This document shows positions 20,281-33,663 of a DNA stretch of 51,906 nt, in pieces. Below the pieces are notes generated by a model that had not been told where the DNA came from, searched no databases, and worked only from the letters and a program-made list of their open reading frames with translations. Each line of letters begins with the position of its first letter. Positions within the stretch are counted from its first letter, which is position 1. This DNA comes from Pseudarcicella sp. Its GTDB lineage: Bacteria; Bacteroidota; Bacteroidia; Cytophagales; Spirosomataceae. A program made the translations under genes and the position numbers. The stretch lies in contig JAGNSI010000001.1 of assembly GCA_017988135.1 (NCBI GenBank), positions 1 to 51,906 of the forward strand, written 5' to 3'.

Positions 20281-23200
20281 CTATTTCAAGCTAAACTTAC
20301 GTACAAATTCTTTTCCTGATTGATCTTTTAGACGAATAAAGTATATTTTAGATAACAAGTTTGGCAAATCAATGATTACTTTATTGATGCCTGCCTGTAC
20401 TTTGATATCTTTGGCCAAATACTGCATGCCCAAGATGTCTACTATTTGCGTTTGAAGAATTTTATCTTCATTGCTTTCAATGTCTATTCTTATCTGCTTG
20501 CCTGATACTGGATTTGGATATACTTGACTTACTCTTGTATTTTCAGTTCCATTTTCTACGTATTCGATTCTTGAATGTACCCAAGTTTCGTTTGTATTAA
20601 TCATTTTCAAGCGATAATAATTGGCATTGGCAGACACATTATTGTCTACAAACTTATAGCTAGGTGAATGGTTAGCCTGTACAAAACCTACTTTTTCGAA
20701 TAGCTTACCGTCTGTACTTTTTTCTATTTCGTAGCCTTTAAAGTCTGTTTCGTTGGTTACGTTCCAAACCAAAATATTACTCTTCGAACTGTTCTTTTTG
20801 GCTGTAAAACTAGCCAAGCTTGCCGATAATGGTGCGGCACTTGGTGTGTTCACAAAGAAACCTGAGAAACCTGATACATCAAAAGTTACTGACCAATACG
20901 CTCCGTTCCAAACTATTTTGCTAGTATCTGGTATTATTGTAACTGGCTCTGAAGGATAACCCGAAGGGAAACCATTGCTAGATACACCTGAAAATTTAAC
21001 AATTTTAAGGTTTAATTTATTCAAACCGTCTGTTGGTCCGGTTGGTAATTTCAATGCGTTGCTTACATTGTAAGCATCAAAATCGGCTTGGGTAAAATAC
21101 AATGTTACGGATGCTGTTGCAGTATTTGGATTGACAGTCGGTGTAATTTCGTAATGACGACGTAAATAATTTGGTGAACTTGTGGCACTCACAAATACTT
21201 TCACTTTTACATCGCTATTGACTGCTGTAGAGCCTCCTATTGGTAAAATTTTAGCAGCTAATTCACAATCTGAGTTTACAAAAACATTGTTATTTACATC
21301 TTGAAACAAAGAATCTGTATCCATCAACAAGCTATAAATATTGGCAATTTGGCTTTCGTATGCACCAATATCGGTTATCGATGCACCGCCTACTGTTAGC
21401 ACATCTACCATTGGATTACCTAAAATATCTGTTGGATGATAATCCAATGCAACGTCTACTAATGGCGAACAAGTTTTTAGCATCAAACCATCATCAGCGG
21501 TTAGCCATTTTCCATCATCACCTATAGGGTTATTTGCATTTTTAAATCCTGGATTTACTAACACATTGTTTACACCAGGATACACACTTGAACCTTCAAT
21601 ATCTGAGTATTGTATATCGAAAGCTCCTCCAAAAAATTCTTCTAAGCTAGTGTTACCATCACCAGTGTTCCCCCAAATTATTGAGTTCACTATTGTTGCA
21701 CTTGCAAGTGTCGCAGCACAAACACTTCCTTCAAACACAGAAACGTGGTTATTCAAGATATCGGTATTGGACACAACGTTATTATTTCCAAATGTAAAAA
21801 ACATAGCACTTGCAGAAATATTAGCAAGATTACCTATCATTACAGATTTTGAAATATCCAAGGCTGTATTTTGATAGGTATAAATACCAGAACCATAATT
21901 TGCTTTGTTATTTGTAAGTACAGATTCTGTGAGATTTAAGTTTGAACTTGAAGCTGAATAAATAGCACCTCCATACTCAAAAGCTGAATTATTTTTTAAA
22001 ATGCAATTTTTTATTTGAAATTCTGCAGGGTTATTTGCCAAGAAAACCGCTCCTCCATTTTGACCATCGAAACCTGAAGATAAATTCAAAAATGAAATGA
22101 AATTTAAATCGTCAGCGTTGCCACCTTCAATAGTAAGACCATTTATTTGAGTAATAGCAGTAATAGACTCACCAACTGCAACTACGTGATAGGCGTTTTC
22201 AGAATTATTGTTAATATTCAAAGTTGCTCCTGTACCTGTTACAACGTCATCGTTGTTAAAATCACCAGATAAAGTAGTTACGTAATCCTTTGGATTTCTA
22301 TCTCCAATAACTGGATTTCCTGAAGCTGGGAATCCACCAAACACATTGGCACCATTTTTCATCATAAATGTTTTTGAACGAACATCTATTGGACTAGAAT
22401 TTCCAAATTCATCCTCGGTAGGGAGATATTTCCCTTCTGCTACCCAAACCTCTGTTACCGAGCAAGCATTCAAACCTTCTTGAAGATTTTTAAAAGCTGT
22501 AGCCCAGCTCAATCCATCACCAGATACAGCAACAGCATTGTTTACATGCGCTTTTGACACTGAAGGCTTCACGGTTACGCTCAGCGATGATGTTCCTGTA
22601 GTACATTGACCTGCTGTGGGCGTAAATGTATAGGTTCCTGATGCAGTATTACTCAATGCTGGTGACCAAGTACCTGTAACACTATTGGTTGAAGTAGTTG
22701 GCAATGGAGCTAAAGTTGCTCCCGAACAAATAGGATTTACAGCATTAAAAGTAGCAGTAACTAATGGATTTACAGTTACGCTCAATGATGATGTACCTGT
22801 AGTACATTGACCTGCTGTTGGCGTAAAAGTATAGGTTCCTGATGCAGTATTACTCAATGCTGGTGACCAAGTACCTGTAACGCTATTGGTTGAAGTAGTT
22901 GGCAATGGAGCTAAAGTTGCTCCCGAACAAATAGGATTTACAGCATTAAAAGTAGCCGTAATGGATGCATTGCCAGTTCCTTGAATAGCAAAGGTGTACG
23001 GATTTTCGTTTGCATCGTCATTTACTATAGAAATAGTTGCATTTTTTACACCAGAAATAGTCGGATCAAAAGCCACTGTAAAAGTTGTACTTCCCGAAGG
23101 ACTCACGGTAGCACTTGGCTGAGTAGAAACAGAAAAACTGCTGGCATCTGCTCCTGTGATACTCACAATTGGCGAACCTGACAAATTTAAAGTACCTGAA

Positions 23201-24783
23201 ACATCTGTATTTTTGATGGTATACGTTTTAGAAATAGAGCCCGTACCTGCAGCACAAACATTTCCAAACTGGGTATTATTGGAAGCAGATGCTGTATTGG
23301 AACCATTAGCTATAGCTACATTTCCAGCATCTACAACATCTATTTCAGGAGCTAATATTTCTGAAGAAAACTTAATATTATCTACCGAAATATAATTTAT
23401 GCCACTTACCACAACAAGCTCTATAGCTTTTATCAATTGGTTGTTGAAAGGTGTTGATGCAAACGAAATATTTTGTTGCCAACCTGTACCTGTATTATTA
23501 GTAGGTGTTACGGTAAAATCTGCTTGAACGGTAGTTCCGTCTAATTTAGTACCTATCAAACGTACTACTCCGGTTGCAAAACCATTGTTTCCATCAGCAT
23601 TTGATGTCCAAGCATCAAAACTTATCAATTTTATAGCTCTATTTCCAGTTGTAATATTTATTTTACCAGTACTTGCGGCGTTTCCACCATTACCTATAGT
23701 AGAATGCAACCACGAGTTTGACGAACCACTTCCAAATGTTGCAGCAGTATATACTTTCAAATCTTGAGTAGCACTAAAAGAAATACCATTTTGTGAGAAT
23801 GTAGCTCCGCCATTGGTTTCACCTTCAAAAGTTTCTGTCACGGCATCGTCGTCTAATATATTGCCAACTCCTTGAGCATCCAGTAAAGTGCCACCTACTG
23901 GAGAAGTAAGATTTACAAAATAGGTTTCGTTGGGTTCAAGACTTACATCTCCATTTACTGTTACATTTACTGTTTTAGTCAATTCACCTATAGCAAAATT
24001 TACAACTTGACTGCTTATAGCGGTGTAATCTACTCCAGAAGTAGCAGTTCCATTTGCTGTGTTTACTGTAACACTACCTGTCGCCGAAGAATTTGTTCTG
24101 GATACCGTAAAAGTATGCGTATTCGTACCAGAGTTTGCTTCAATAGCACTTACATCATTGATAGAATATTGGCTACTTACTATAGGAGCTGTTGTAAAAT
24201 TGATATTGTCTATAGAAAAATAAAGCAAATTTGATGGCAATTGAAACTCAAGCTTGATCAATTGAACATTTTCAAGAGCTGTGCCTGCAAAAGTAATTCC
24301 TTCATGATAGTCTAAACCATTGGGAAGAGGTACTATGTTTCTTGTTGCAGAAACGGTAGTTCCATCAGGTTTTGTACCTATGAAAGTAACTGTTCCCGAA
24401 TTGTGTACCAATAAATCTATATCATTACTTGTCCAGCAGGCAAAAGAGTTAATTTTGAATGATGTAGCTGCGTTGGTAATTCTAAAACCTCCAATATTTT
24501 GATTTGAATGGTTTATTAATGTTGTTGTTTCAAAATAAACTGCTGATCCATTTGAGCCAAATCCTTGCCCCCATGCTACCCTCATCCTAGTTCCCGTAAC
24601 TTCAAAATTTATTCCTGACTCTGAAAATGCATTGTCATACACATTGAAAGTCGTTTCGCCTTCAAAACTTTCAGTGGCTGTAGTTTGCCCATAGTTTAGT
24701 AAGGGCAAGAAAACGAGCAGACATAACAGCAATTTTCTTACTCCGAGAAAATCGCTTTGATTAAAGTGTATATTTTTTTTCAT
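20281..24783 (-). CDS. Giant secreted multidomain adhesin-like protein with T9SS C-terminal sorting domain
   Basis: 1500 aa. Signal peptide. Two copies of an N-terminal module (ESFEGET.../ETFEGET...). A Calx-beta-like segment (GTATSGVDYT...VNGDVSLEPNETYFVNL). A choice-of-anchor-D-like Ig region. Two identical Cys-pair modules. A Pmp/beta-helix-like repeat region (GGAVF...NNSAFEYGGAIYS). An FN3-like domain. A C-terminal VYPNPVSGKQIRI...IYFIRL T9SS type-A tail. Confidence 0.85.
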   Translation of the reverse strand: MKKNIHFNQSDFLGVRKLLLCLLVFLPLLNYGQTTATESFEGETTFNVYDNAFSESGINFEVTGTRMRVAWGQGFGSNGSAVYFETTTLINHSNQNIGGFRITNAATSFKINSFACWTSNDIDLLVHNSGTVTFIGTKPDGTTVSATRNIVPLPNGLDYHEGITFAGTALENVQLIKLEFQLPSNLLYFSIDNINFTTAPIVSSQYSINDVSAIEANSGTNTHTFTVSRTNSSATGSVTVNTANGTATSGVDYTAISSQVVNFAIGELTKTVNVTVNGDVSLEPNETYFVNLTSPVGGTLLDAQGVGNILDDDAVTETFEGETNGGATFSQNGISFSATQDLKVYTAATFGSGSSNSWLHSTIGNGGNAASTGKINITTGNRAIKLISFDAWTSNADGNNGFATGVVRLIGTKLDGTTVQADFTVTPTNNTGTGWQQNISFASTPFNNQLIKAIELVVVSGINYISVDNIKFSSEILAPEIDVVDAGNVAIANGSNTASASNNTQFGNVCAAGTGSISKTYTIKNTDVSGTLNLSGSPIVSITGADASSFSVSTQPSATVSPSGSTTFTVAFDPTISGVKNATISIVNDDANENPYTFAIQGTGNASITATFNAVNPICSGATLAPLPTTSTNSVTGTWSPALSNTASGTYTFTPTAGQCTTGTSSLSVTVNPLVTATFNAVNPICSGATLAPLPTTSTNSVTGTWSPALSNTASGTYTFTPTAGQCTTGTSSLSVTVKPSVSKAHVNNAVAVSGDGLSWATAFKNLQEGLNACSVTEVWVAEGKYLPTEDEFGNSSPIDVRSKTFMMKNGANVFGGFPASGNPVIGDRNPKDYVTTLSGDFNNDDVVTGTGATLNINNNSENAYHVVAVGESITAITQINGLTIEGGNADDLNFISFLNLSSGFDGQNGGAVFLANNPAEFQIKNCILKNNSAFEYGGAIYSASSSNLNLTESVLTNNKANYGSGIYTYQNTALDISKSVMIGNLANISASAMFFTFGNNNVVSNTDILNNHVSVFEGSVCAATLASATIVNSIIWGNTGDGNTSLEEFFGGAFDIQYSDIEGSSVYPGVNNVLVNPGFKNANNPIGDDGKWLTADDGLMLKTCSPLVDVALDYHPTDILGNPMVDVLTVGGASITDIGAYESQIANIYSLLMDTDSLFQDVNNNVFVNSDCELAAKILPIGGSTAVNSDVKVKVFVSATSSPNYLRRHYEITPTVNPNTATASVTLYFTQADFDAYNVSNALKLPTGPTDGLNKLNLKIVKFSGVSSNGFPSGYPSEPVTIIPDTSKIVWNGAYWSVTFDVSGFSGFFVNTPSAAPLSASLASFTAKKNSSKSNILVWNVTNETDFKGYEIEKSTDGKLFEKVGFVQANHSPSYKFVDNNVSANANYYRLKMINTNETWVHSRIEYVENGTENTRVSQVYPNPVSGKQIRIDIESNEDKILQTQIVDILGMQYLAKDIKVQAGINKVIIDLPNLLSKIYFIRLKDQSGKEFVRKFSLK
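22574..22956 (-). repeat. Tandem 201-bp (67-aa) duplication inside the adhesin gene
   Basis: Two head-to-tail copies (period 22574 to 22775) with about 6 nucleotide differences by my count. They encode identical ATFNAVNPICSGATL...GQCTTGTSSLSVTV modules. Confidence 0.9.
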
Positions 24784-24854
24784 TTTAATAAAATTTAAAT
24801 TTAAAATATTCTTTTTTTCTAAAGAAGATTGATTTTTTCAATCAATTTCAAAAT

Positions 24855-24889
24855 GAGAAGCTTCATTCAAAAATGGAACAATGCTTCTC
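24855..24889 (-). terminator. Weak stem-loop between the tail-collar gene and the adhesin gene
   Basis: GAGAAGC, 21-nt loop, GCTTCTC, followed on the minus strand by ATTTTG. The loop is long, so function is uncertain. Confidence 0.3.
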
Positions 24890-24899
24890 TTTAAAAAAA

Positions 24900-25427
24900 T
24901 TAATTACGTGATGGATAAATACCATACATACAAATAATAAAATTCATCGCTAAATATGGCTGTACAATACTCACTGGCATATTATTACCAGCAGGTGTTG
25001 TTTGCGAAGCCATGGGCACTACAGTGCTTCCAGAGGTAGCATATATTGAAGGCATTGGTACTGTTCTAGACGAAGAAGCTAAAATACCTCCTGAAGCTAA
25101 ACTTTGTGTAGGCCCAGCTGAAGTACCTGTCATTAAATGTGTGTGTGCAGGCAAATTTGATTGTAAAAGAGTTACATTTTCGACACCTGACATTTGCCCT
25201 AAAGCATAATAACTTAAACCTGCCCCTTGCCCTACTCCTACTGGCACTCTGCCTCTGAAATCGGGTAATGCAAAAGTTGTAGTTCCGTTTCCTCCGTAAG
25301 TTGTTCCTAAAATTGAAAACAATGCTGTGTTTTGTGCTATACTCACTATTTGCCCACTACAAAATGACCAAGTTTTAGGTGCAAAATTGCCTGCAAACAT
25401 TCTTATTTCTCCAATAGTTCCTTCCAT
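24900..25427 (-). CDS. Phage tail-collar domain protein (MdpB/COG4675-like), paralogue 2
   Basis: 175 aa. IGEIRMFAGNFAPKTW..C.GQ...IAQNTALFSILGTTYGGNGTTTFALPDFRGR, NLPAHTH and C-terminal IICMYGIYPSRN. No signal peptide. Confidence 0.85.
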   Translation of the reverse strand: MEGTIGEIRMFAGNFAPKTWSFCSGQIVSIAQNTALFSILGTTYGGNGTTTFALPDFRGRVPVGVGQGAGLSYYALGQMSGVENVTLLQSNLPAHTHLMTGTSAGPTQSLASGGILASSSRTVPMPSIYATSGSTVVPMASQTTPAGNNMPVSIVQPYLAMNFIICMYGIYPSRN

Positions 25428-25459
25428 GATCGTATTGATTTTTGTGTGAAAATATTTTT

Positions 25460-25978
25460 TTAATTTCTAGAAGGGAATATACCTTCTGAACAAATAATAT
25501 AGTTTATAGCAATGGTTGGTTGCAAGATTCCAAAAGGTGAATTCCCTCCAGTAGCTGCCACAGCGGAACCCATATTTACATTAGCTCCCGCCGTATTTGC
25601 ATAAATATTAGGCTGTGTTTCTCCGCTTGCCAAATAGTTACCGTTAGCCGCACTCGATGTTGGAGCTTCTGAAGAAGCCATCATTCCATGAACATGCGCT
25701 GGCATGTTACTCACTAACATTGTTTGGTTTTGAGAGCCAGCCATTTCACCTAAAGCATAGTAGGATAATCCTGGCCCTTGAAATGTTCCTACTGATATTC
25801 TACTATTAAAATTTGGCAACCCAAATGTAGTTATACCATCTCCGCCATAGTTAGTACCTAAGAGAGAAAATAACGCTGAATTTTGTGATATAGACTGTAA
25901 AGAACCATTACATAAAAGCCAGCCTCTTGGTGCGAAGTTGCCAGCAAATATTCTGATTTCTGCCAGGTATGGATCCAT
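25460..25978 (-). CDS. Phage tail-collar domain protein (MdpB/COG4675-like), paralogue 1
   Basis: 172 aa. LAEIRIFAGNFAPRGW, QNSALFSLLGTNYGGDGITTFGLPNF, NMPAHVH and IICSEGIFPSRN. Roughly half the residues are identical to the neighbouring paralogue. No signal peptide. Confidence 0.85.
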   Translation of the reverse strand: MDPYLAEIRIFAGNFAPRGWLLCNGSLQSISQNSALFSLLGTNYGGDGITTFGLPNFNSRISVGTFQGPGLSYYALGEMAGSQNQTMLVSNMPAHVHGMMASSEAPTSSAANGNYLASGETQPNIYANTAGANVNMGSAVAATGGNSPFGILQPTIAINYIICSEGIFPSRN

Positions 25979-25980
25979 AA

Positions 25981-26529
25981 TTACGAAATTTTAGAATTGA
26001 TATAAATATTAAATTTCACTTTTACTAAGTCATCGTTGCTCCAGTCTGTTTTGGGTAAATCTATTGTTTCTAAAAAAGACATTTGTTCAAAATATTGATT
26101 ATCGATAAATGCTTTTCCCAATCCGTTAAACAGTAATTGAGTGGTGTATTGATTCTCATCCTTGCCTTGTACTTTCAAAAAAAGTCTTCTCATCAATGGC
26201 TGTCCTTCTGTAAAATGTTTTTCTGGAAAATCTGTTTCAAAACTAAAATTTCCCAATTCGTCGGTTTTTAAAGTACCTTTATACGTAAAATTCTCTTCAT
26301 TCGTTTCTATGTTATTATGCCAAAATTCTATACTTGAGTGGGCTTTTGCTTCTGAAAACTGATTAAGAACTTGACCCGATATCCTTAAACGTTTGCTATT
26401 TCCTTTGCTAAAATTGTTAATCGATTGTTTGTTTTTGGAAGCTGATTTCCCTATCAAAGGTGCCAAGCCAAGACCCAAAGCAAAAATCGAAGCGCTTTTA
26501 AAAAAAGTTCTACGACTATTATTTATCAT
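25981..26529 (-). CDS. TAT-signal protein with intradiol-dioxygenase-like beta-sandwich fold (possibly non-catalytic)
   Basis: 182 aa. Twin-arginine motif SRRTFFKSASIFALGLGLA. ISGQVLN....IEFWHNN...YKGTLKTDELGNFSFETDFP resembles the dioxygenase C-terminal domain. Its stop is 2 nt from the start of collar paralogue 1. Confidence 0.5.
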   Translation of the reverse strand: MINNSRRTFFKSASIFALGLGLAPLIGKSASKNKQSINNFSKGNSKRLRISGQVLNQFSEAKAHSSIEFWHNNIETNEENFTYKGTLKTDELGNFSFETDFPEKHFTEGQPLMRRLFLKVQGKDENQYTTQLLFNGLGKAFIDNQYFEQMSFLETIDLPKTDWSNDDLVKVKFNIYINSKIS

Positions 26530-26567
26530 TTGTAATAGATGGTTAAAAAATACTTGTTTCTAAAAAA

Positions 26568-27242
26568 TTAAATTTGTACCCACATTCTTAAAAGATTACT
26601 GTGGGTTTGGAGCAAAAGATTACTTTCCATAGAATTGGGTGCGTTGCTATAAAGCATACCATGTAATTGGTTGAGTTCAAACAAAATTTGCCTTTGCTCT
26701 ACCGAAGCTACTTGACTTTGCACCCACGTTACTGCGGCTACTCTTTCTCCTTTGGTTACTGGGTTTACACAATGTAAAAAGTTGCATGGGTACACTATGG
26801 CATCTCCTTTATTTAGTTTATAAGAACTAACGCCTTGAGTACTATTGATAAGCAACTCGCCACCTTCGTAACTTGCTGGGTCTGACAAAAAAACAGTCAT
26901 TGCCAAATCTGTTCGCATAGCAGGAGTACCCATTACTAGACTATCTATATGCCAACCATAATTCATATTTTCTAGGTATTTGCTTACAATGATAGGATAA
27001 ATGTGTTTGGGAAGTGAGTATATTTGAAACAGAGGACTATTATCTAATGCATGAGTGAGGATTTCTTTGACACGAGGCAGGGTTTGAGTATCAGAATTAG
27101 GTATTTGTAAGTTTTGTTTGACCTGTTGAGCACCAAGAGAAGCCGTTGTAGAGCCATCTTGAAAATTGCTTTTCGATATTAAAATACTTATTTCTTCCAA
27201 CTCTCCCAAAGTGAGTAGCTGGGGAATAGCGATTGGTCCCAT
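26568..27242 (-). CDS. PKHD-type Fe(II)/2-oxoglutarate hydroxylase (YbiX/PiuC family)
   Basis: 224 aa. IPQLLTLGELEEI...FQDGSTTASLGAQQVKQNLQIP N-terminus. H-x-D (WHIDS) and distal H (FLHCVNPVTKGERVAAVTW). Confidence 0.8.
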   Translation of the reverse strand: MGPIAIPQLLTLGELEEISILISKSNFQDGSTTASLGAQQVKQNLQIPNSDTQTLPRVKEILTHALDNSPLFQIYSLPKHIYPIIVSKYLENMNYGWHIDSLVMGTPAMRTDLAMTVFLSDPASYEGGELLINSTQGVSSYKLNKGDAIVYPCNFLHCVNPVTKGERVAAVTWVQSQVASVEQRQILFELNQLHGMLYSNAPNSMESNLLLQTHSNLLRMWVQI

Positions 27243-27276
27243 TTGTATTAAAAATTAGCTATAAATTATAGCCTTT

Positions 27277-27580
27277 TAGTGTGTTATGTATTTGAAATTT
27301 ATAAATAAAAAAATAGCTTTATCTATAAAAATGTATTTATGCTAATAGTGTGTTAATCAAGAAAATCAATTTCCTTATTTATACTAATCTAAACATTTAT
27401 TATTCAAATTACAAATAAATTAAACACTAAAAATAGATGTAACACACTAATAATCAAGTGTATTGAAAAGTAAAATCAAAAAAAGTATTTATTCTTAATT
27501 AGAATCAATATTAAAATTTATACATTTGAAAATTAAAACAGATTGAATAAATCTTTAAAAAAATCATTCATAACACACCA
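27277..27580. promoter_or_regulatory. Divergent promoter region with repeated TAACACAC(T/C)A motif (candidate operator sites)
   Basis: TAGTGTGTTA at 27277-27286 and 27346-27355. The reverse-complement TAACACACTA at 27440-27449. TAACACACCA at 27571-27580, abutting the ATG. A degenerate TAAACACTAA at 27421-27430. Confidence 0.45.
27521..27528 (+). promoter_or_regulatory. Candidate -7 box (TACATTTG)
   Basis: TAnnTTTG match 52 nt upstream of the ATG at 27580. Confidence 0.4.
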
Positions 27581-28260
27581 TGGATTTTATAAAATTTAAC
27601 CTGCAATATGATGTTGTAAAACTAAAATCAGATTTAAAAAATTGTCAAAAATACAAGTGGCCCTTACATTTCAACCAAAACGATTTTACAGGACATTGGT
27701 CAAGTATAGCTTTGAGGTCTATATCGGGTAACGAATCGGATATTTCATCGCAAGCAAACGCCACATACAAAGACACCCAACTACTTGACGAATGCCATTA
27801 TTTCAAAGAAATAATTACCAATTTTCAGTGCCCTTTAGAGTCTGTACGATTGCTTTCGCTGTCGCCTAATAGCTACATAAAAGCCCATAAAGACCCAGAT
27901 GCAGGTTATGAAGACGGTTTTTTTAGAATACACATTCCCGTTCAAACCAACAGCGATGTGGTGTTTACCCTCAACAACCAAACCTTGGCAATGAAAGAGG
28001 GTGACTGCTGGTATGCCAATTTCAATCTTACCCATTTTGTAGCCAACAATGGCAATCAAGACCGCATCCATTTGGTAATCGATGGCATAAGAAACCAGTG
28101 GAGCGACCAACTTTTTGAAAAACATGGCTATGATTTGAGCTTAAAAAGTAATGATAATTTAGACGAAAAAACTAAACAATTAGTAATAGAAAATCTGAAA
28201 CAGATAAACACACCTACAGCAAAAAAACTGATAGAAAACTTAATAAATGGTACAATATGA
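27580..28260 (+). CDS. Aspartyl/asparaginyl beta-hydroxylase-family cupin oxygenase (soluble)
   Basis: 226 aa. AHKDP....FFRIHIPVQTN...MKEGDCWYANFNLTHFVANNG..DRIHLVID matches the Asp_Arg_Hydrox signature. No TM segment. Confidence 0.8.
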   Translation: MDFIKFNLQYDVVKLKSDLKNCQKYKWPLHFNQNDFTGHWSSIALRSISGNESDISSQANATYKDTQLLDECHYFKEIITNFQCPLESVRLLSLSPNSYIKAHKDPDAGYEDGFFRIHIPVQTNSDVVFTLNNQTLAMKEGDCWYANFNLTHFVANNGNQDRIHLVIDGIRNQWSDQLFEKHGYDLSLKSNDNLDEKTKQLVIENLKQINTPTAKKLIENLINGTI

Positions 28261-29225
28261 AAGACTATATTTTAAAAAATTGGATTCCGTACAAGCTTGA
28301 TTATCAAGAAACTAATGATATTTTGTGCCAATGGTTATATTTGGGAGAGAATAGATTTACAGAACCTTTCTTTGAAGAAACTACGGGATTATGTAGACGT
28401 TTAGAAATCAATAGAAACATACAAAAATCATGTACTACTTTTGATGGAATAAACGATTTTTCCGAAAACATTCCACACCTAGAACCAACAGCTTTTATAT
28501 TTCACATTTCGAGATGTGGCTCTACTTTGCTGGCACAATTGCTTTCTTTGGATGAACAAAACATAGTAGTTTCGGAAGCTCCTATTTTAGACGAAATAAT
28601 AAGAAATGTAGCTTATAAAAGCAGTCTAAAAACAGAAACAGAAATCAACAATGCTATAAAATCTTGTATAAAATTATTAGGAAAAAAACGTTCTGGAAAT
28701 GAAGAAAATTTTTTCATTAAACTAGATAGCTGGCATATTTTCTATTACCAAAAACTAAGGCAATTATATCCAAATACGCCATTTATATTTTCGTACAGAA
28801 ACCCAAGCGAAGTAATACGATCGCAAGAAAAAAATAGCGGCATGCACGCTTCACCTGGCATTATTCAAATAGATTTGTTTGGCCTCGACTTCACAGAAAG
28901 CCTAAAACTTTCTAAACCTGAATACATCAGCAAAGTATTAGAAAGCTACTTTAATGAATATTTAAAAATAATAGACTCTGACAAAAACTGTATTTTTGTA
29001 AATTATAACAATGGTTTGTTAGAAAATTTAAACCAAATAAAAGAGTTTTTAAAACTTCATTTCAGTGAAGAATTCAAAGAAAAAATCACAGAGCGAAGCA
29101 AATTTCATAGCAAAATGCCCAACCAGATTTTTAAAGAACCAGCTATAAGTACCACCATTCCTGAATACCAAAATACAGTGAAGGATTTGTATGAAAAATT
29201 GAATGGTTTAGTAGAAAAATTGTAA
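28257..29225 (+). CDS. PAPS-dependent sulfotransferase-family protein
   Basis: 322 aa. 5'-PSB-like loop FHISRCGSTLLAQLL and 3'-PB-like YRNPSEVIRS. The start overlaps the upstream stop (ATGA, 28257-28260). Confidence 0.65.
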   Translation: MKDYILKNWIPYKLDYQETNDILCQWLYLGENRFTEPFFEETTGLCRRLEINRNIQKSCTTFDGINDFSENIPHLEPTAFIFHISRCGSTLLAQLLSLDEQNIVVSEAPILDEIIRNVAYKSSLKTETEINNAIKSCIKLLGKKRSGNEENFFIKLDSWHIFYYQKLRQLYPNTPFIFSYRNPSEVIRSQEKNSGMHASPGIIQIDLFGLDFTESLKLSKPEYISKVLESYFNEYLKIIDSDKNCIFVNYNNGLLENLNQIKEFLKLHFSEEFKEKITERSKFHSKMPNQIFKEPAISTTIPEYQNTVKDLYEKLNGLVEKL

Positions 29226-32135: not shown

Positions 32136-33053
32136 TCAACCCAGCGTATCTCCTATTTTAAAACCCAAAGTAGCCATATTTTCGCCGACCATATAGCCTT
32201 GTTCGGTATAAATGGCTTGAATTATTAAGGTTTCATCGCCGAGACAGGCTACATGTATTTCCGAAGAATTTATAAGAATTATATTACCTGGCAAAGCTTT
32301 AATTTCTGCTGCAATTACTGTTTTAGCTTCTAAAATTTTCAAAAATGCACCTTTGAATTTTACAGCAGCTCCTTTATTCCATGGATTGCAAGCTTTCACC
32401 AATGCTACGATTTCTGCCGCACTCATATTTTTGAAATCAACTATCATGTCTTGCATTTGAGGGCGTTTAGTGTATTGCTCACTTACTTTCGTCTGTGCTT
32501 TCAGTGTAAGTGTTCCGCCTAAAAGAGCATTTATCAACTGAAAAACACCATTGATTGTAGCATATCCAAACATCACTTCTATGGCTCCGTAAATCTGATT
32601 TTTATGTAAATCAAATGGTATTTCTATTGCTATATCGCCAGCATCAAACTTTTCGTTCATTTTATGAATAGTGAGTTGGCACTGTGGCTCTCTATTTTTT
32701 ATTTGCCAAAAAACTGGTACAGCACCTGCATATTTAGGCAAGCTTCCAAAATGAATATTAAAAAAACCATACTTCGGTAACGTCAAAACACTAGCTGGTA
32801 TTTTGAAAGGACAACCCAGCACCAGCACTAAGTCTGCTTGCGATGATTGCACAAAACCTATTAAATCATTATTTAGATTTTCACGCCTCAATACAGTTAT
32901 GTTTTGATTGATTTGTTGTGCTATCTGGCGTAAATCTTGCGAAAAATCGGTTTGCTGTTCATTTATACCTATTGCAGCCAACAATTGTTGTCCTCTAAGC
33001 CAACTTATCAGGGGAAAAGCGGCTGTGGTATTACAAATAAGTGCTATTTTCAA
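32136..33053 (-). CDS. Formyltransferase-family protein (Fmt/ArnA-N paralogue, probably not the housekeeping fmt)
   Basis: 305 aa. FFNIHFGSLPKYAGAVP (N-x-H and SLPxY motif, with Ala where Fmt has Arg) and DAGDI, plus a C-terminal Fmt-like domain. The N-terminus is atypical. Confidence 0.7.
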   Translation of the reverse strand: MKIALICNTTAAFPLISWLRGQQLLAAIGINEQQTDFSQDLRQIAQQINQNITVLRRENLNNDLIGFVQSSQADLVLVLGCPFKIPASVLTLPKYGFFNIHFGSLPKYAGAVPVFWQIKNREPQCQLTIHKMNEKFDAGDIAIEIPFDLHKNQIYGAIEVMFGYATINGVFQLINALLGGTLTLKAQTKVSEQYTKRPQMQDMIVDFKNMSAAEIVALVKACNPWNKGAAVKFKGAFLKILEAKTVIAAEIKALPGNIILINSSEIHVACLGDETLIIQAIYTEQGYMVGENMATLGFKIGDTLG

Positions 33054-33129: not shown

Positions 33130-33663
33130 ATGATTTTAATACAACTTACAGGCTTGTCTGGTGCTGGCAAAACTACCATTGCTGGTTTTATTGAAAACAC
33201 TTTACAACAAAATGGCTTCAACGTAAGCATTATAGATGGTGATATTTTTAGAAAAAAATTTTGTACAGATTTGGGTTTTTCAGAAACAGATAGATTTGAA
33301 AATCTAAACAGAATAATCGCTTTCGCAAAAAACAATTCGGCAAACCACGATTTTATTATTTTATCAATCATCAATCCATTTGAAAGTGTAAGAAAAAAAA
33401 TAAAGACTGAGTTTCAAAATTGTATGACCATTTGGGTAAATTGCACTTTAGAAACTTTAAAAAAAAGAGACACCAAAGGTTTTTACCAAAGAGCTTTTCT
33501 TCCTCCTAACGATCCTAACTATTTAAAAAATTTCACAGGCATTAGCCAAAAATATGAATTGCCTTTACAATATGATTTAGCCATAAATACAGACGAACTG
33601 AGCATTTCAGAAACTCAACATTTAATCTCTCAATATTTTAGTAAACCGTATCAAAAACTATAA
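33130..33663 (+). CDS. cysC: Adenylylsulfate (APS) kinase
   Basis: 177 aa. LTGLSGAGKTTIA P-loop and DGDIFRKKFCTDLGFSETDRFENLNRIIAFAK. Confidence 0.88.
   Translation: MILIQLTGLSGAGKTTIAGFIENTLQQNGFNVSIIDGDIFRKKFCTDLGFSETDRFENLNRIIAFAKNNSANHDFIILSIINPFESVRKKIKTEFQNCMTIWVNCTLETLKKRDTKGFYQRAFLPPNDPNYLKNFTGISQKYELPLQYDLAINTDELSISETQHLISQYFSKPYQKL

Follow-up and report, generated by a model that had tools for sequence, protein, structure and literature searches.

Hitchhiking by way of twin-arginine translocation (Tat) is well established for complexes like HybO/HybC (hydrogenase-2) and DmsAB of Escherichia coli, and MelC1 of Streptomyces is known as the Tat-signal caddie of the tyrosinase MelC2. 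PaoABC is described as a Tat hitchhiker complex in one report (PMC4273604), and another one presents a dedicated small Tat-signal "hitchhiker protein" for the flavin adenine dinucleotide glucose dehydrogenase of Burkholderia (PMC6719666). Here, we analyze a locus of possibly similar design in a DNA stretch of 51,906 nucleotides (nt; "the window") from Pseudarcicella sp. (positions 1 to 51,906 on the forward strand of contig JAGNSI010000001.1, assembly GCA_017988135.1). On its minus strand, the window carries a co-directional run of four genes for a PiuC-type oxygenase, a Tat-signal protein of 182 amino acids (aa), and two proteins related to phage tail collars, collar A and collar B, that have no signal of their own. 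Our best single reading, to which we assign a probability of roughly 45%, is that the collars are exported through Tat as hitchhikers on the 182-aa protein.

This cassette resembles HybO/HybC, DmsAB, and PaoABC in that one subunit bears a leader and signal-less partners, which would be exported in a folded state, are encoded beside it. Those complexes are redox enzymes in which the subunit with the signal itself binds a cofactor and serves in catalysis or electron transfer, whereas the cassette would pair a fiber tip-like trimer as cargo with a carrier that has no cofactor site, and its co-export is a proposal drawn from the genes. The Burkholderia hitchhiker protein and MelC1 parallel the role proposed here in being small, non-catalytic providers of a Tat leader, and perhaps chaperones, for a signal-less partner encoded next to them, but they show no kinship in sequence or fold to the 182-aa protein, and their cargoes are enzymes. 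In the full-text literature searched, which largely excludes subscription journals, we found neither a functional study of cellular collar arrays nor a paper that contains both "tail collar" and "twin-arginine". The main text of an R. leguminosarum secretome paper mentions neither collar nor tail proteins (PMC2275737), and a Solibacter paper gives only a positive-selection statistic for collar paralogs (PMC3174227). Yet cellular arrays of such phage fiber-tip genes are common in the family and phylum of our window. If the Tat partner is indeed a carrier, this would explain how signal-less, trimeric, and metal-bound fiber tips leave the cytoplasm, the few known Tat hitchhikers would be joined by a cargo that is not an enzyme and a carrier that is a pseudo-enzyme, and there would be a simple handle on what the cassette as a whole does in cultured freshwater Bacteroidota.

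The four-gene cassette and its collar proteins

The cassette comprises the following features, listed in the direction of transcription:

26568..27242, minus strand: PiuC/YbiX-type Fe(II)/2-oxoglutarate oxygenase, 224 aa (NCBIfam NF003974, 2.3e-70; PF13640, 2e-13)
25981..26529, minus strand: proposed carrier, a Tat-signal protein of 182 aa whose fold is a degenerate beta-sandwich of the intradiol-dioxygenase kind
26437..26529, minus strand: codons for its twin-arginine signal peptide, approximately residues 1-31 (from the sequence, with the cleavage site judged by eye)
25979..25980, minus strand: 2-nt spacer from the stop codon of the Tat-protein gene to the ATG of collar A
25460..25978, minus strand: collar paralog A, 172 aa, without signal peptide, C-terminal PSRN (PF07484, 5.4e-26)
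24900..25427, minus strand: collar paralog B, 175 aa, without signal peptide, C-terminal PSRN (PF07484, 3.7e-28)
24846..24896, minus strand: hairpin and U-run directly 3' of collar B (RNA fold -15.5 kcal/mol, z-score -3.46)

The PiuC-type gene is the first of the run and lies 38 nt upstream of the gene for the 182-aa protein. As the preliminary description of this locus had pointed out, the latter gene encodes a twin-arginine motif (SRRTFFK) and ends 2 nt before the first collar, which we confirmed in the sequence; another 32 nt separate collar A from collar B. The hairpin and U-run after collar B likely mark the end of the transcription unit. A consensus terminator scan did not list this hairpin, and the promoter-like sites returned by a consensus scan are at chance level (13 versus 12.0 expected). 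Four freshwater RNA libraries contain exact 151-nt contigs on each of the four genes, and one metatranscriptome contig (25875-26025) spans the junction of Tat gene and collar A; these contigs could stem from DNA carry-over and show neither expression level nor strand, and stretches without contigs were not taken as silent.

With its N-terminus MINNSRRTFFKSASIFALGLGLAPLIG, the 182-aa protein follows the motif of Tat substrates (S/T-R-R-x-F-L-K and then a mildly hydrophobic h-region) and can be parsed into an n-region SRRTFFK, an h-region SASIFALGLGLAPLIG, and a c-region KSASK. A crude regular expression and visual reading served to call Tat leaders here, and cleavage sites as well as Sec-like leaders were judged visually, rather than with a trained predictor. 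The two arginines, F9, and K11 are invariant across five orthologs of the 182-aa protein, the arginine pair is found in 26 of 28 aligned relatives, and residues 1-30 of its structural model have a low predicted local distance difference test score (pLDDT, 49-54) before a confident core begins. The genome encodes the Tat translocase, as seen from profile matches to TatC (2.1e-66) and TatA/B/E (1.3e-17). Since Tat-like N-termini are found in only 12 among 1870 long open frames of the genome by a strict rule (39 of 2047 by a loose one), the adjacency of a Tat protein and collars is unlikely to be due to chance. The whole genome holds just these two collar genes and a single copy of the 182-aa gene, and the arrangement of leaders is that of a Tat hitchhiker complex, with one leader on the Tat protein and no signal on either collar.

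Collars A and B are 53% identical to each other and match PF07484 with 90.8 and 97.7 bits, respectively, at a cut-off of 24. Both begin at the collar domain itself without any N-terminal extension, and neither contains a further domain above threshold or a Por_Secre_tail, in agreement with the earlier view that they have no signal peptide and no C-terminal domain for the type IX secretion system (T9SS). Among 49 aligned collars, none of this cassette type has an N-terminal extension. The collar domain is followed by an HxH motif (PAHVHGM in collar A, comprising His95 and His97; PAHTHLM in collar B) of which both histidines are invariant in the 49 aligned collars. In gp12 and gp37, HxH is a metal-binding motif.

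Collar A matches the tail protein family phrog_9116 (3.8e-25, residues 6-163), and its model retrieves a tail fiber (8KEC, 7.5e-5) and T4 gp12 in Foldseek searches, while collar B matches the receptor-binding domain of T4 gp12 (1OCY, 3.8e-6 with phmmer). The monomer model of collar A is of moderate quality (pLDDT 73; predicted template modeling score, pTM, 0.46), as would be expected from an intertwined trimer, and the collar A copies in our complex predictions (see below) reach a pLDDT of 91-92 with a different predictor. By sequence and fold, the collars thus share with the tip of T4 gp12 (1OCY, 5IV5) and with the tail fiber of cyanophage A-1(L) (8KEC) the succession of a collar domain and an HxH-bearing head. 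They differ from these proteins by a length of only 172-175 aa without a fiber shaft, by their organization as chromosomal tandem paralogs, and by the absence of phage genes nearby. Collars A and B are cellular copies of the receptor-binding tip of phage tail fibers. We had considered Bizionia C24 (6OV6, Foldseek E 0.38) as a solved bacterial relative and dropped it, because a passage of PMC11821841 treats it as a prophage fiber tip.

Such kinship raises the question of whether the collars are mere remnants of a prophage or contractile injection system that came to lie beside a Tat gene by accident, as their matches to phrog_9116 (8e-29) and T4 gp12 might suggest. We consider this very improbable given that the 16 flanking proteins that we scanned between 12 and 39 kb of the window include no phage protein, that the flanks instead hold genes for arginine biosynthesis, SurA, and RelA/SpoT, and that neither the Tat protein nor the collars have matches in PADLOC. 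Furthermore, the cassette is syntenic across genera, and collar arrays are present in 75 of 151 genomes of the family.

A dioxygenase fold without its iron site

The relationships of the 182-aa protein are hidden from simple searches. A word-indexed homolog search recovered the protein itself alone, and single-sequence phmmer against the Protein Data Bank (PDB) gave a chance match to phycocyanin (E 0.73) and nothing else, so that profiles were needed. Its match to the Pfam family Dioxygenase_C is below threshold (20.1 versus 27.3 bits) and covers residues 24-103 only. A profile built from the family and its relatives matches catechol 1,2-dioxygenase (1DLM, 2.7e-17) and 38 further intradiol dioxygenase chains. 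The AlphaFold model of the protein (pLDDT 84.9) retrieves 69 PDB chains at E <= 0.001 in Foldseek, with all of those listed being intradiol dioxygenases and the best matches being 4ILV and protocatechuate 3,4-dioxygenase (3,4-PCD; E ~5e-9). The dioxygenase beta-sandwich inferred in the preliminary description is therefore well founded.

Intradiol dioxygenases (PF00775), as represented by 1DLM, 2PCD, and the SACTE_2871 domain 4ILV, share this beta-sandwich with the 182-aa protein, and some of their small canonical relatives bear Tat leaders, too. In contrast to them, the 182-aa protein does not keep the canonical Fe ligands, falls below the Pfam gathering threshold, and belongs to a family from which the N-terminal GPYY region is deleted. 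We take the Fe(III) ligands of 1DLM to be Tyr164, Tyr200, His224, and His226, using a numbering re-derived by counting along the alignment. His224 corresponds to Arg115 of the 182-aa protein, His226 to Phe117, and Tyr200 to His105, and the stretch around Tyr164 is missing from its family. The loss of ligands that had been suspected from the strand RRLFLKV is thus borne out: The iron-ligand strand RPxHIHfKV of 1DLM and four canonical small homologs reads LMRRLFLKV in the 182-aa protein, and among 13 close relatives, the first ligand-histidine position is occupied by Arg in all 13 and the second one by Phe in 11, His in one, and Glu in one. Weaker relatives of the protein, which are encoded by open frames of 195-558 aa and score E values from 1e-8 to 1e-3, lack collars within ~1.5 kb and were set aside as ordinary members of the dioxygenase family.

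Canonical small relatives retain RPxHIHfKV, and two of them (P0041 and P0053) bear Tat leaders as well, which argues that the twin-arginine leader is ancestral to the family and outlived the cofactor site. Judging from its sequence, the 182-aa protein descends from small periplasmic intradiol dioxygenases whose Fe(III) site was lost and whose twin-arginine leader was kept, and it would represent a clean case of an enzyme fold that has apparently lost catalysis and retained its export signal. The non-catalytic alpha chain of 3,4-PCD, which is among the Foldseek matches, provides a precedent for a ligand-less paralog that serves as a partner subunit.

Alternatively, the 182-aa protein might still be an enzyme or a binder of small molecules or metals that acts in the periplasm with a remodeled site and independently of the collars. 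Candidate residues would be His105, His71, Asn73, Tyr83, Asp100, Arg115, and Asp143, and the protein could, for example, belong to an iron-responsive operon together with PiuC, as homologs of PiuC/YbiX presumably adjoin siderophore receptors in E. coli and Pseudomonas. This idea gains from the 26 columns of the mature domain that are invariant in five orthologs, from the retention of His or Tyr at the Tyr200 position, and from the A5 branch, which retains His at the second histidine position. We nevertheless find it unlikely, since the protein has lost three of its four intradiol ligands and its Pfam match is sub-threshold, and the idea leaves the constant presence of collar genes downstream unexplained.

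Collar arrays and a possible route out of the cytoplasm

Full-length orthologs of the 182-aa protein, 33-44% identical to it, are present in 5 of the 151 family genomes and at 12 loci of the species collection, together representing 11 genomes that are mostly Spirosomataceae and include those of the cultured carriers Emticicia sp. C21 and Lacihabitans sp. LS3-19; in a whole library of 1.84 billion proteins, only seven representatives score below 1e-30. Two to four collar genes follow the Tat gene at 10 out of 10 species-collection loci with enough downstream DNA; the remaining 2 of the 12 stop at a contig edge just past the Tat gene. The spacer between the Tat gene and the first collar measures 8-25 nt at these 10 loci compared to 2 nt in the window. 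In the Lacihabitans genome G035, the Tat gene is found on three contigs (C33, C72, and C122; L007, L023, and L028; L037-L039) with identical scores and each time beside collars, which reflects either a triplicated cassette or an assembly repeat.

A distant subgroup, which we sought in 401 phylum genomes, is ca. 25% identical to the 182-aa protein and carries ARIHFKV as its ligand strand. Its collar clusters come from two other genera. In genome G240, one signal-less collar lies 19 nt past the Tat protein and precedes a secreted protein of 1833 aa. The co-directional cluster of genome G272 begins with three collars, which are followed by genes for a binding protein-like and a formyltransferase-like product, a secreted protein of 628 aa, the Tat protein, and another secreted giant. 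From these two clusters, it follows that the degenerate dioxygenase-fold Tat family is a recurrent member of collar clusters that does not always adjoin the collars. The functional coupling of Tat protein and collars claimed earlier thus holds up, as the linkage is present at every readable orthologous locus and recurs with the distant branch, and its tightness and conservation make a functional partnership very likely.

Overall, 75 of the 151 family genomes and 86 of the 401 phylum genomes have collar genes. Our family sample comprised 30 loci, each the best match of its genome, of which 21 have at least two collars. Immediately upstream of 12 of these 21 multi-collar arrays, we found a Tat-like protein that is of the window's type in three cases and of other kinds in nine (L051, L054-L059, L062, and L067; at L059 and L062, the leader is visible only from a non-ATG start). 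Of the remaining nine, five lack a Tat partner and four are not judgeable, either because the upstream frame leaves the locus (L044, L053, and L060) or because there is no upstream room (L048). Among 32 arrays picked from the collar table of the phylum genomes, a Tat-like protein lies immediately upstream in four and three genes away in one more. In four others of this sample (L104, L114, L117, and L130), one or two collar paralogs have a twin-arginine leader of their own, such as KRRSFLK and QRRGFLK at L104 (3484-4191 and 4227-4883), where the first paralog has none. These four loci belong to other families of the phylum, and a sibling collar either has no leader or carries a long leaderless extension. 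Sec-like or anchor-like extensions of collars were seen in 2 of the 32 arrays, and a Sec-like leader is also found at L041. Such leaders indicate that members of the collar family do work outside the cytoplasm and that mixed arrays are natural. No locus combines a Tat partner with signal-bearing collars, yet this apparent mutual exclusion is not significant at these numbers.

At least four unrelated kinds of Tat-signal protein occupy the position upstream of collars. Most of the nine other partners in the family sample form one divergent family. A second type of cassette (L054-L059, L062, L108, L110, and L133) consists of a Tat-signal orphan of ~200-220 aa, three collars in a fixed order that end in PSPN, PSPT, and PPRT, and a GNAT acetyltransferase, whereas the window's cassette has two collars, PiuC, and no GNAT. 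The orphans of this second type are 22-60% identical to each other, have no match in Pfam, PADLOC, or PHROG and no BLAST link to the 182-aa protein, and we do not claim that they share the dioxygenase fold. At two further loci, a small DUF6916 protein (PF21880) is encoded directly upstream of a collar triad with a GNAT gene further upstream (L112 2889-3248, minus strand, 2e-23; L122 2870-3202, minus strand, 1e-20); the window's cassette is without DUF6916.

For the interaction between carrier and cargo, we modeled the mature Tat protein (residues 32-182) together with collar A in triplicate, as the preliminary description had proposed for a trimeric collar. The median score of 0.54 (runs 0.56, 0.49, and 0.54; best of three controls 0.12) passes the mark weakly and lends weak support to a complex. 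In the calibration, 116 of the 157 solved complexes reached this mark, as did 2 of 215 mismatched pairs, whereas scores of 0.60 or less were obtained by only 18 of the 157 solved complexes in addition to both mismatches that passed, and the calibration is approximate for our custom alignments and 3+1 design. Contacts agree by at least 91% between the runs, and the pLDDT of the partner is at least 82; the prediction returned no interface.

As the hitchhiker reading has it, the collars would fold and trimerize around an HxH metal site while still in the cytoplasm and, being folded and trimeric, would be unable to use the Sec pathway. The folded trimer would then bind the mature domain of the Tat-signal protein, and the complex would cross the inner membrane via TatABC on this single leader. 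We favor Tat hitchhiking as the best single mechanism because the leader has been kept on a pseudo-enzyme, because unrelated Tat-signal proteins hold the same position in other arrays, because arrays mix signal-bearing and signal-less paralogs, and because the complex prediction passed, if weakly. Compared with the initial proposal of hitchhiker export, its anatomy, the ligand loss, and the coupling stand, and three comparative facts have been added in its favor; co-export itself is still a proposal.

A serious if tentative competitor is the view that the Tat protein serves in the periplasm as a structural component or adaptor of a surface apparatus that includes a giant T9SS protein encoded downstream, with the collars either staying in the cytoplasm or leaving it by another route. 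It would readily accommodate several points that weigh against hitchhiking. In 21 of the 32 phylum arrays, we saw no Tat partner and no signal within ~3 kb, so either the collar family is not generally exported or there is another route. In G272, some 4 kb separate the dioxygenase-fold Tat protein from the collars, and it lies between two secreted giants rather than beside the collars, so that membership in the same apparatus fits equally well. In addition, the presumably cytoplasmic enzyme PiuC is encoded in the same operon, and a shared operon therefore need not mean a shared compartment. Other reservations concern the data behind the hitchhiker reading as such: The complex score lies in a weak band that is more often wrong than right unless the pairing is likely beforehand, the array counts overstate their support because related genomes are not independent, the Tat leaders of arrays rest on a crude regular expression and the eye rather than a trained predictor, and both the location of the collars and their binding to the Tat protein are predictions here. 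What speaks for hitchhiking over a purely periplasmic part are the spacer of 2-25 nt to the first collar at every orthologous locus, the four or more unrelated kinds of Tat protein in the same upstream position, the existence of collars with their own twin-arginine or Sec leaders, and the weak pass of the complex prediction.

The wider gene cluster

The surroundings of the cassette contain the following genes:

20281..24783, minus strand: secreted protein of 1500 aa that combines an N-terminal signal with a Calx-beta domain and a C-terminal T9SS sorting domain (PF03160, PF18962)
27580..29225, plus strand: pair of an Asp/Asn-beta-hydroxylase-like gene (AspH-like, 226 aa) and a sulfotransferase-like gene (322 aa), divergent from the cassette and overlapping by 4 nt (PF05118, 4e-17; PF13469; PF00685)
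32136-33053, minus strand: formyltransferase-like gene (PF00551, PF02911)
33130-33663, plus strand: adenosine 5'-phosphosulfate (APS) kinase gene (PF01583)

The 1500-aa T9SS protein is encoded by the next gene downstream of collar B. Homologs of it (38-42% identity over ~700 aa) follow the collars at L029 and L035, weaker ones are found at seven more loci, and secreted giants also come after the collars at L146 and L145. Its N-terminal region is common to secreted proteins that follow collar arrays elsewhere, and its translation contains two near-identical tandem copies of a segment of ~63 aa (TATFNAVNPICSGATLAPLP...SSLSVTV).

On the other side of the cassette, a PiuC homolog lies directly upstream of the Tat protein at L029-L036, L043, L049, and L065, and PiuC homologs also adjoin collar arrays without a Tat partner (L109, L125, and L128). 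Homologs of the AspH-like and sulfotransferase-like genes (55-60% identity) are present at seven Tat-type loci and L069, and homologs of the formyltransferase-like gene and of the APS kinase lie near collar arrays at 10 and 3 loci, respectively. Overall, genes of these four kinds recur near the arrays of L029-L037, L061, L069, L107, L109, L118, L119, and L128. Their recurrence hints at hydroxylation, sulfation, or acylation of some component of the cassette, which might be the collars. Taken together, the four genes form a conserved chromosomal operon, and this operon is embedded in a larger cluster, likewise conserved, that encodes modifying enzymes and a giant surface protein of the T9SS type.

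An extended version of the hitchhiker reading, which we deem rather improbable in its entirety, is that the collars ride two carriers in turn to the cell surface, first the Tat protein and then the giant T9SS protein. Maturation in the cytoplasm would consist of trimerization, metal loading at HxH, and perhaps hydroxylation or sulfation by the neighboring PiuC-like, AspH-like, and sulfotransferase enzymes. The inner membrane would be crossed via Tat in a complex with a dedicated carrier that evolved from an iron dioxygenase by loss of its metal site, and a handover in the periplasm would then make the collars the phage-like binding tip of the neighboring giant T9SS protein at the cell surface. 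Lineages would differ in their Tat solution by using unrelated Tat carriers or a Tat leader on one paralog of the trimer.

Besides PiuC, the upstream region of orthologous loci contains an orphan of ~170-190 aa with a HEAGH motif that has no Pfam, PADLOC, or PHROG match. In the window's genome, this orphan (64% identity) is encoded on a different contig among unrelated neighbors (G000:C240:6691-7143; L073 1474-1968, minus strand). One orthologous cassette, L031, comes from a metagenome bin titled Cyanobium, and its genes are 41-63% identical to the Bacteroidota cassette; this contig was probably mis-binned. Twelve rows of public metagenome runs, of which one may represent the sample that the window came from, contain DNA near-identical to its positions 24850-27300 (at least half of the sampled words) and are labeled as wastewater, algae-associated, and freshwater.

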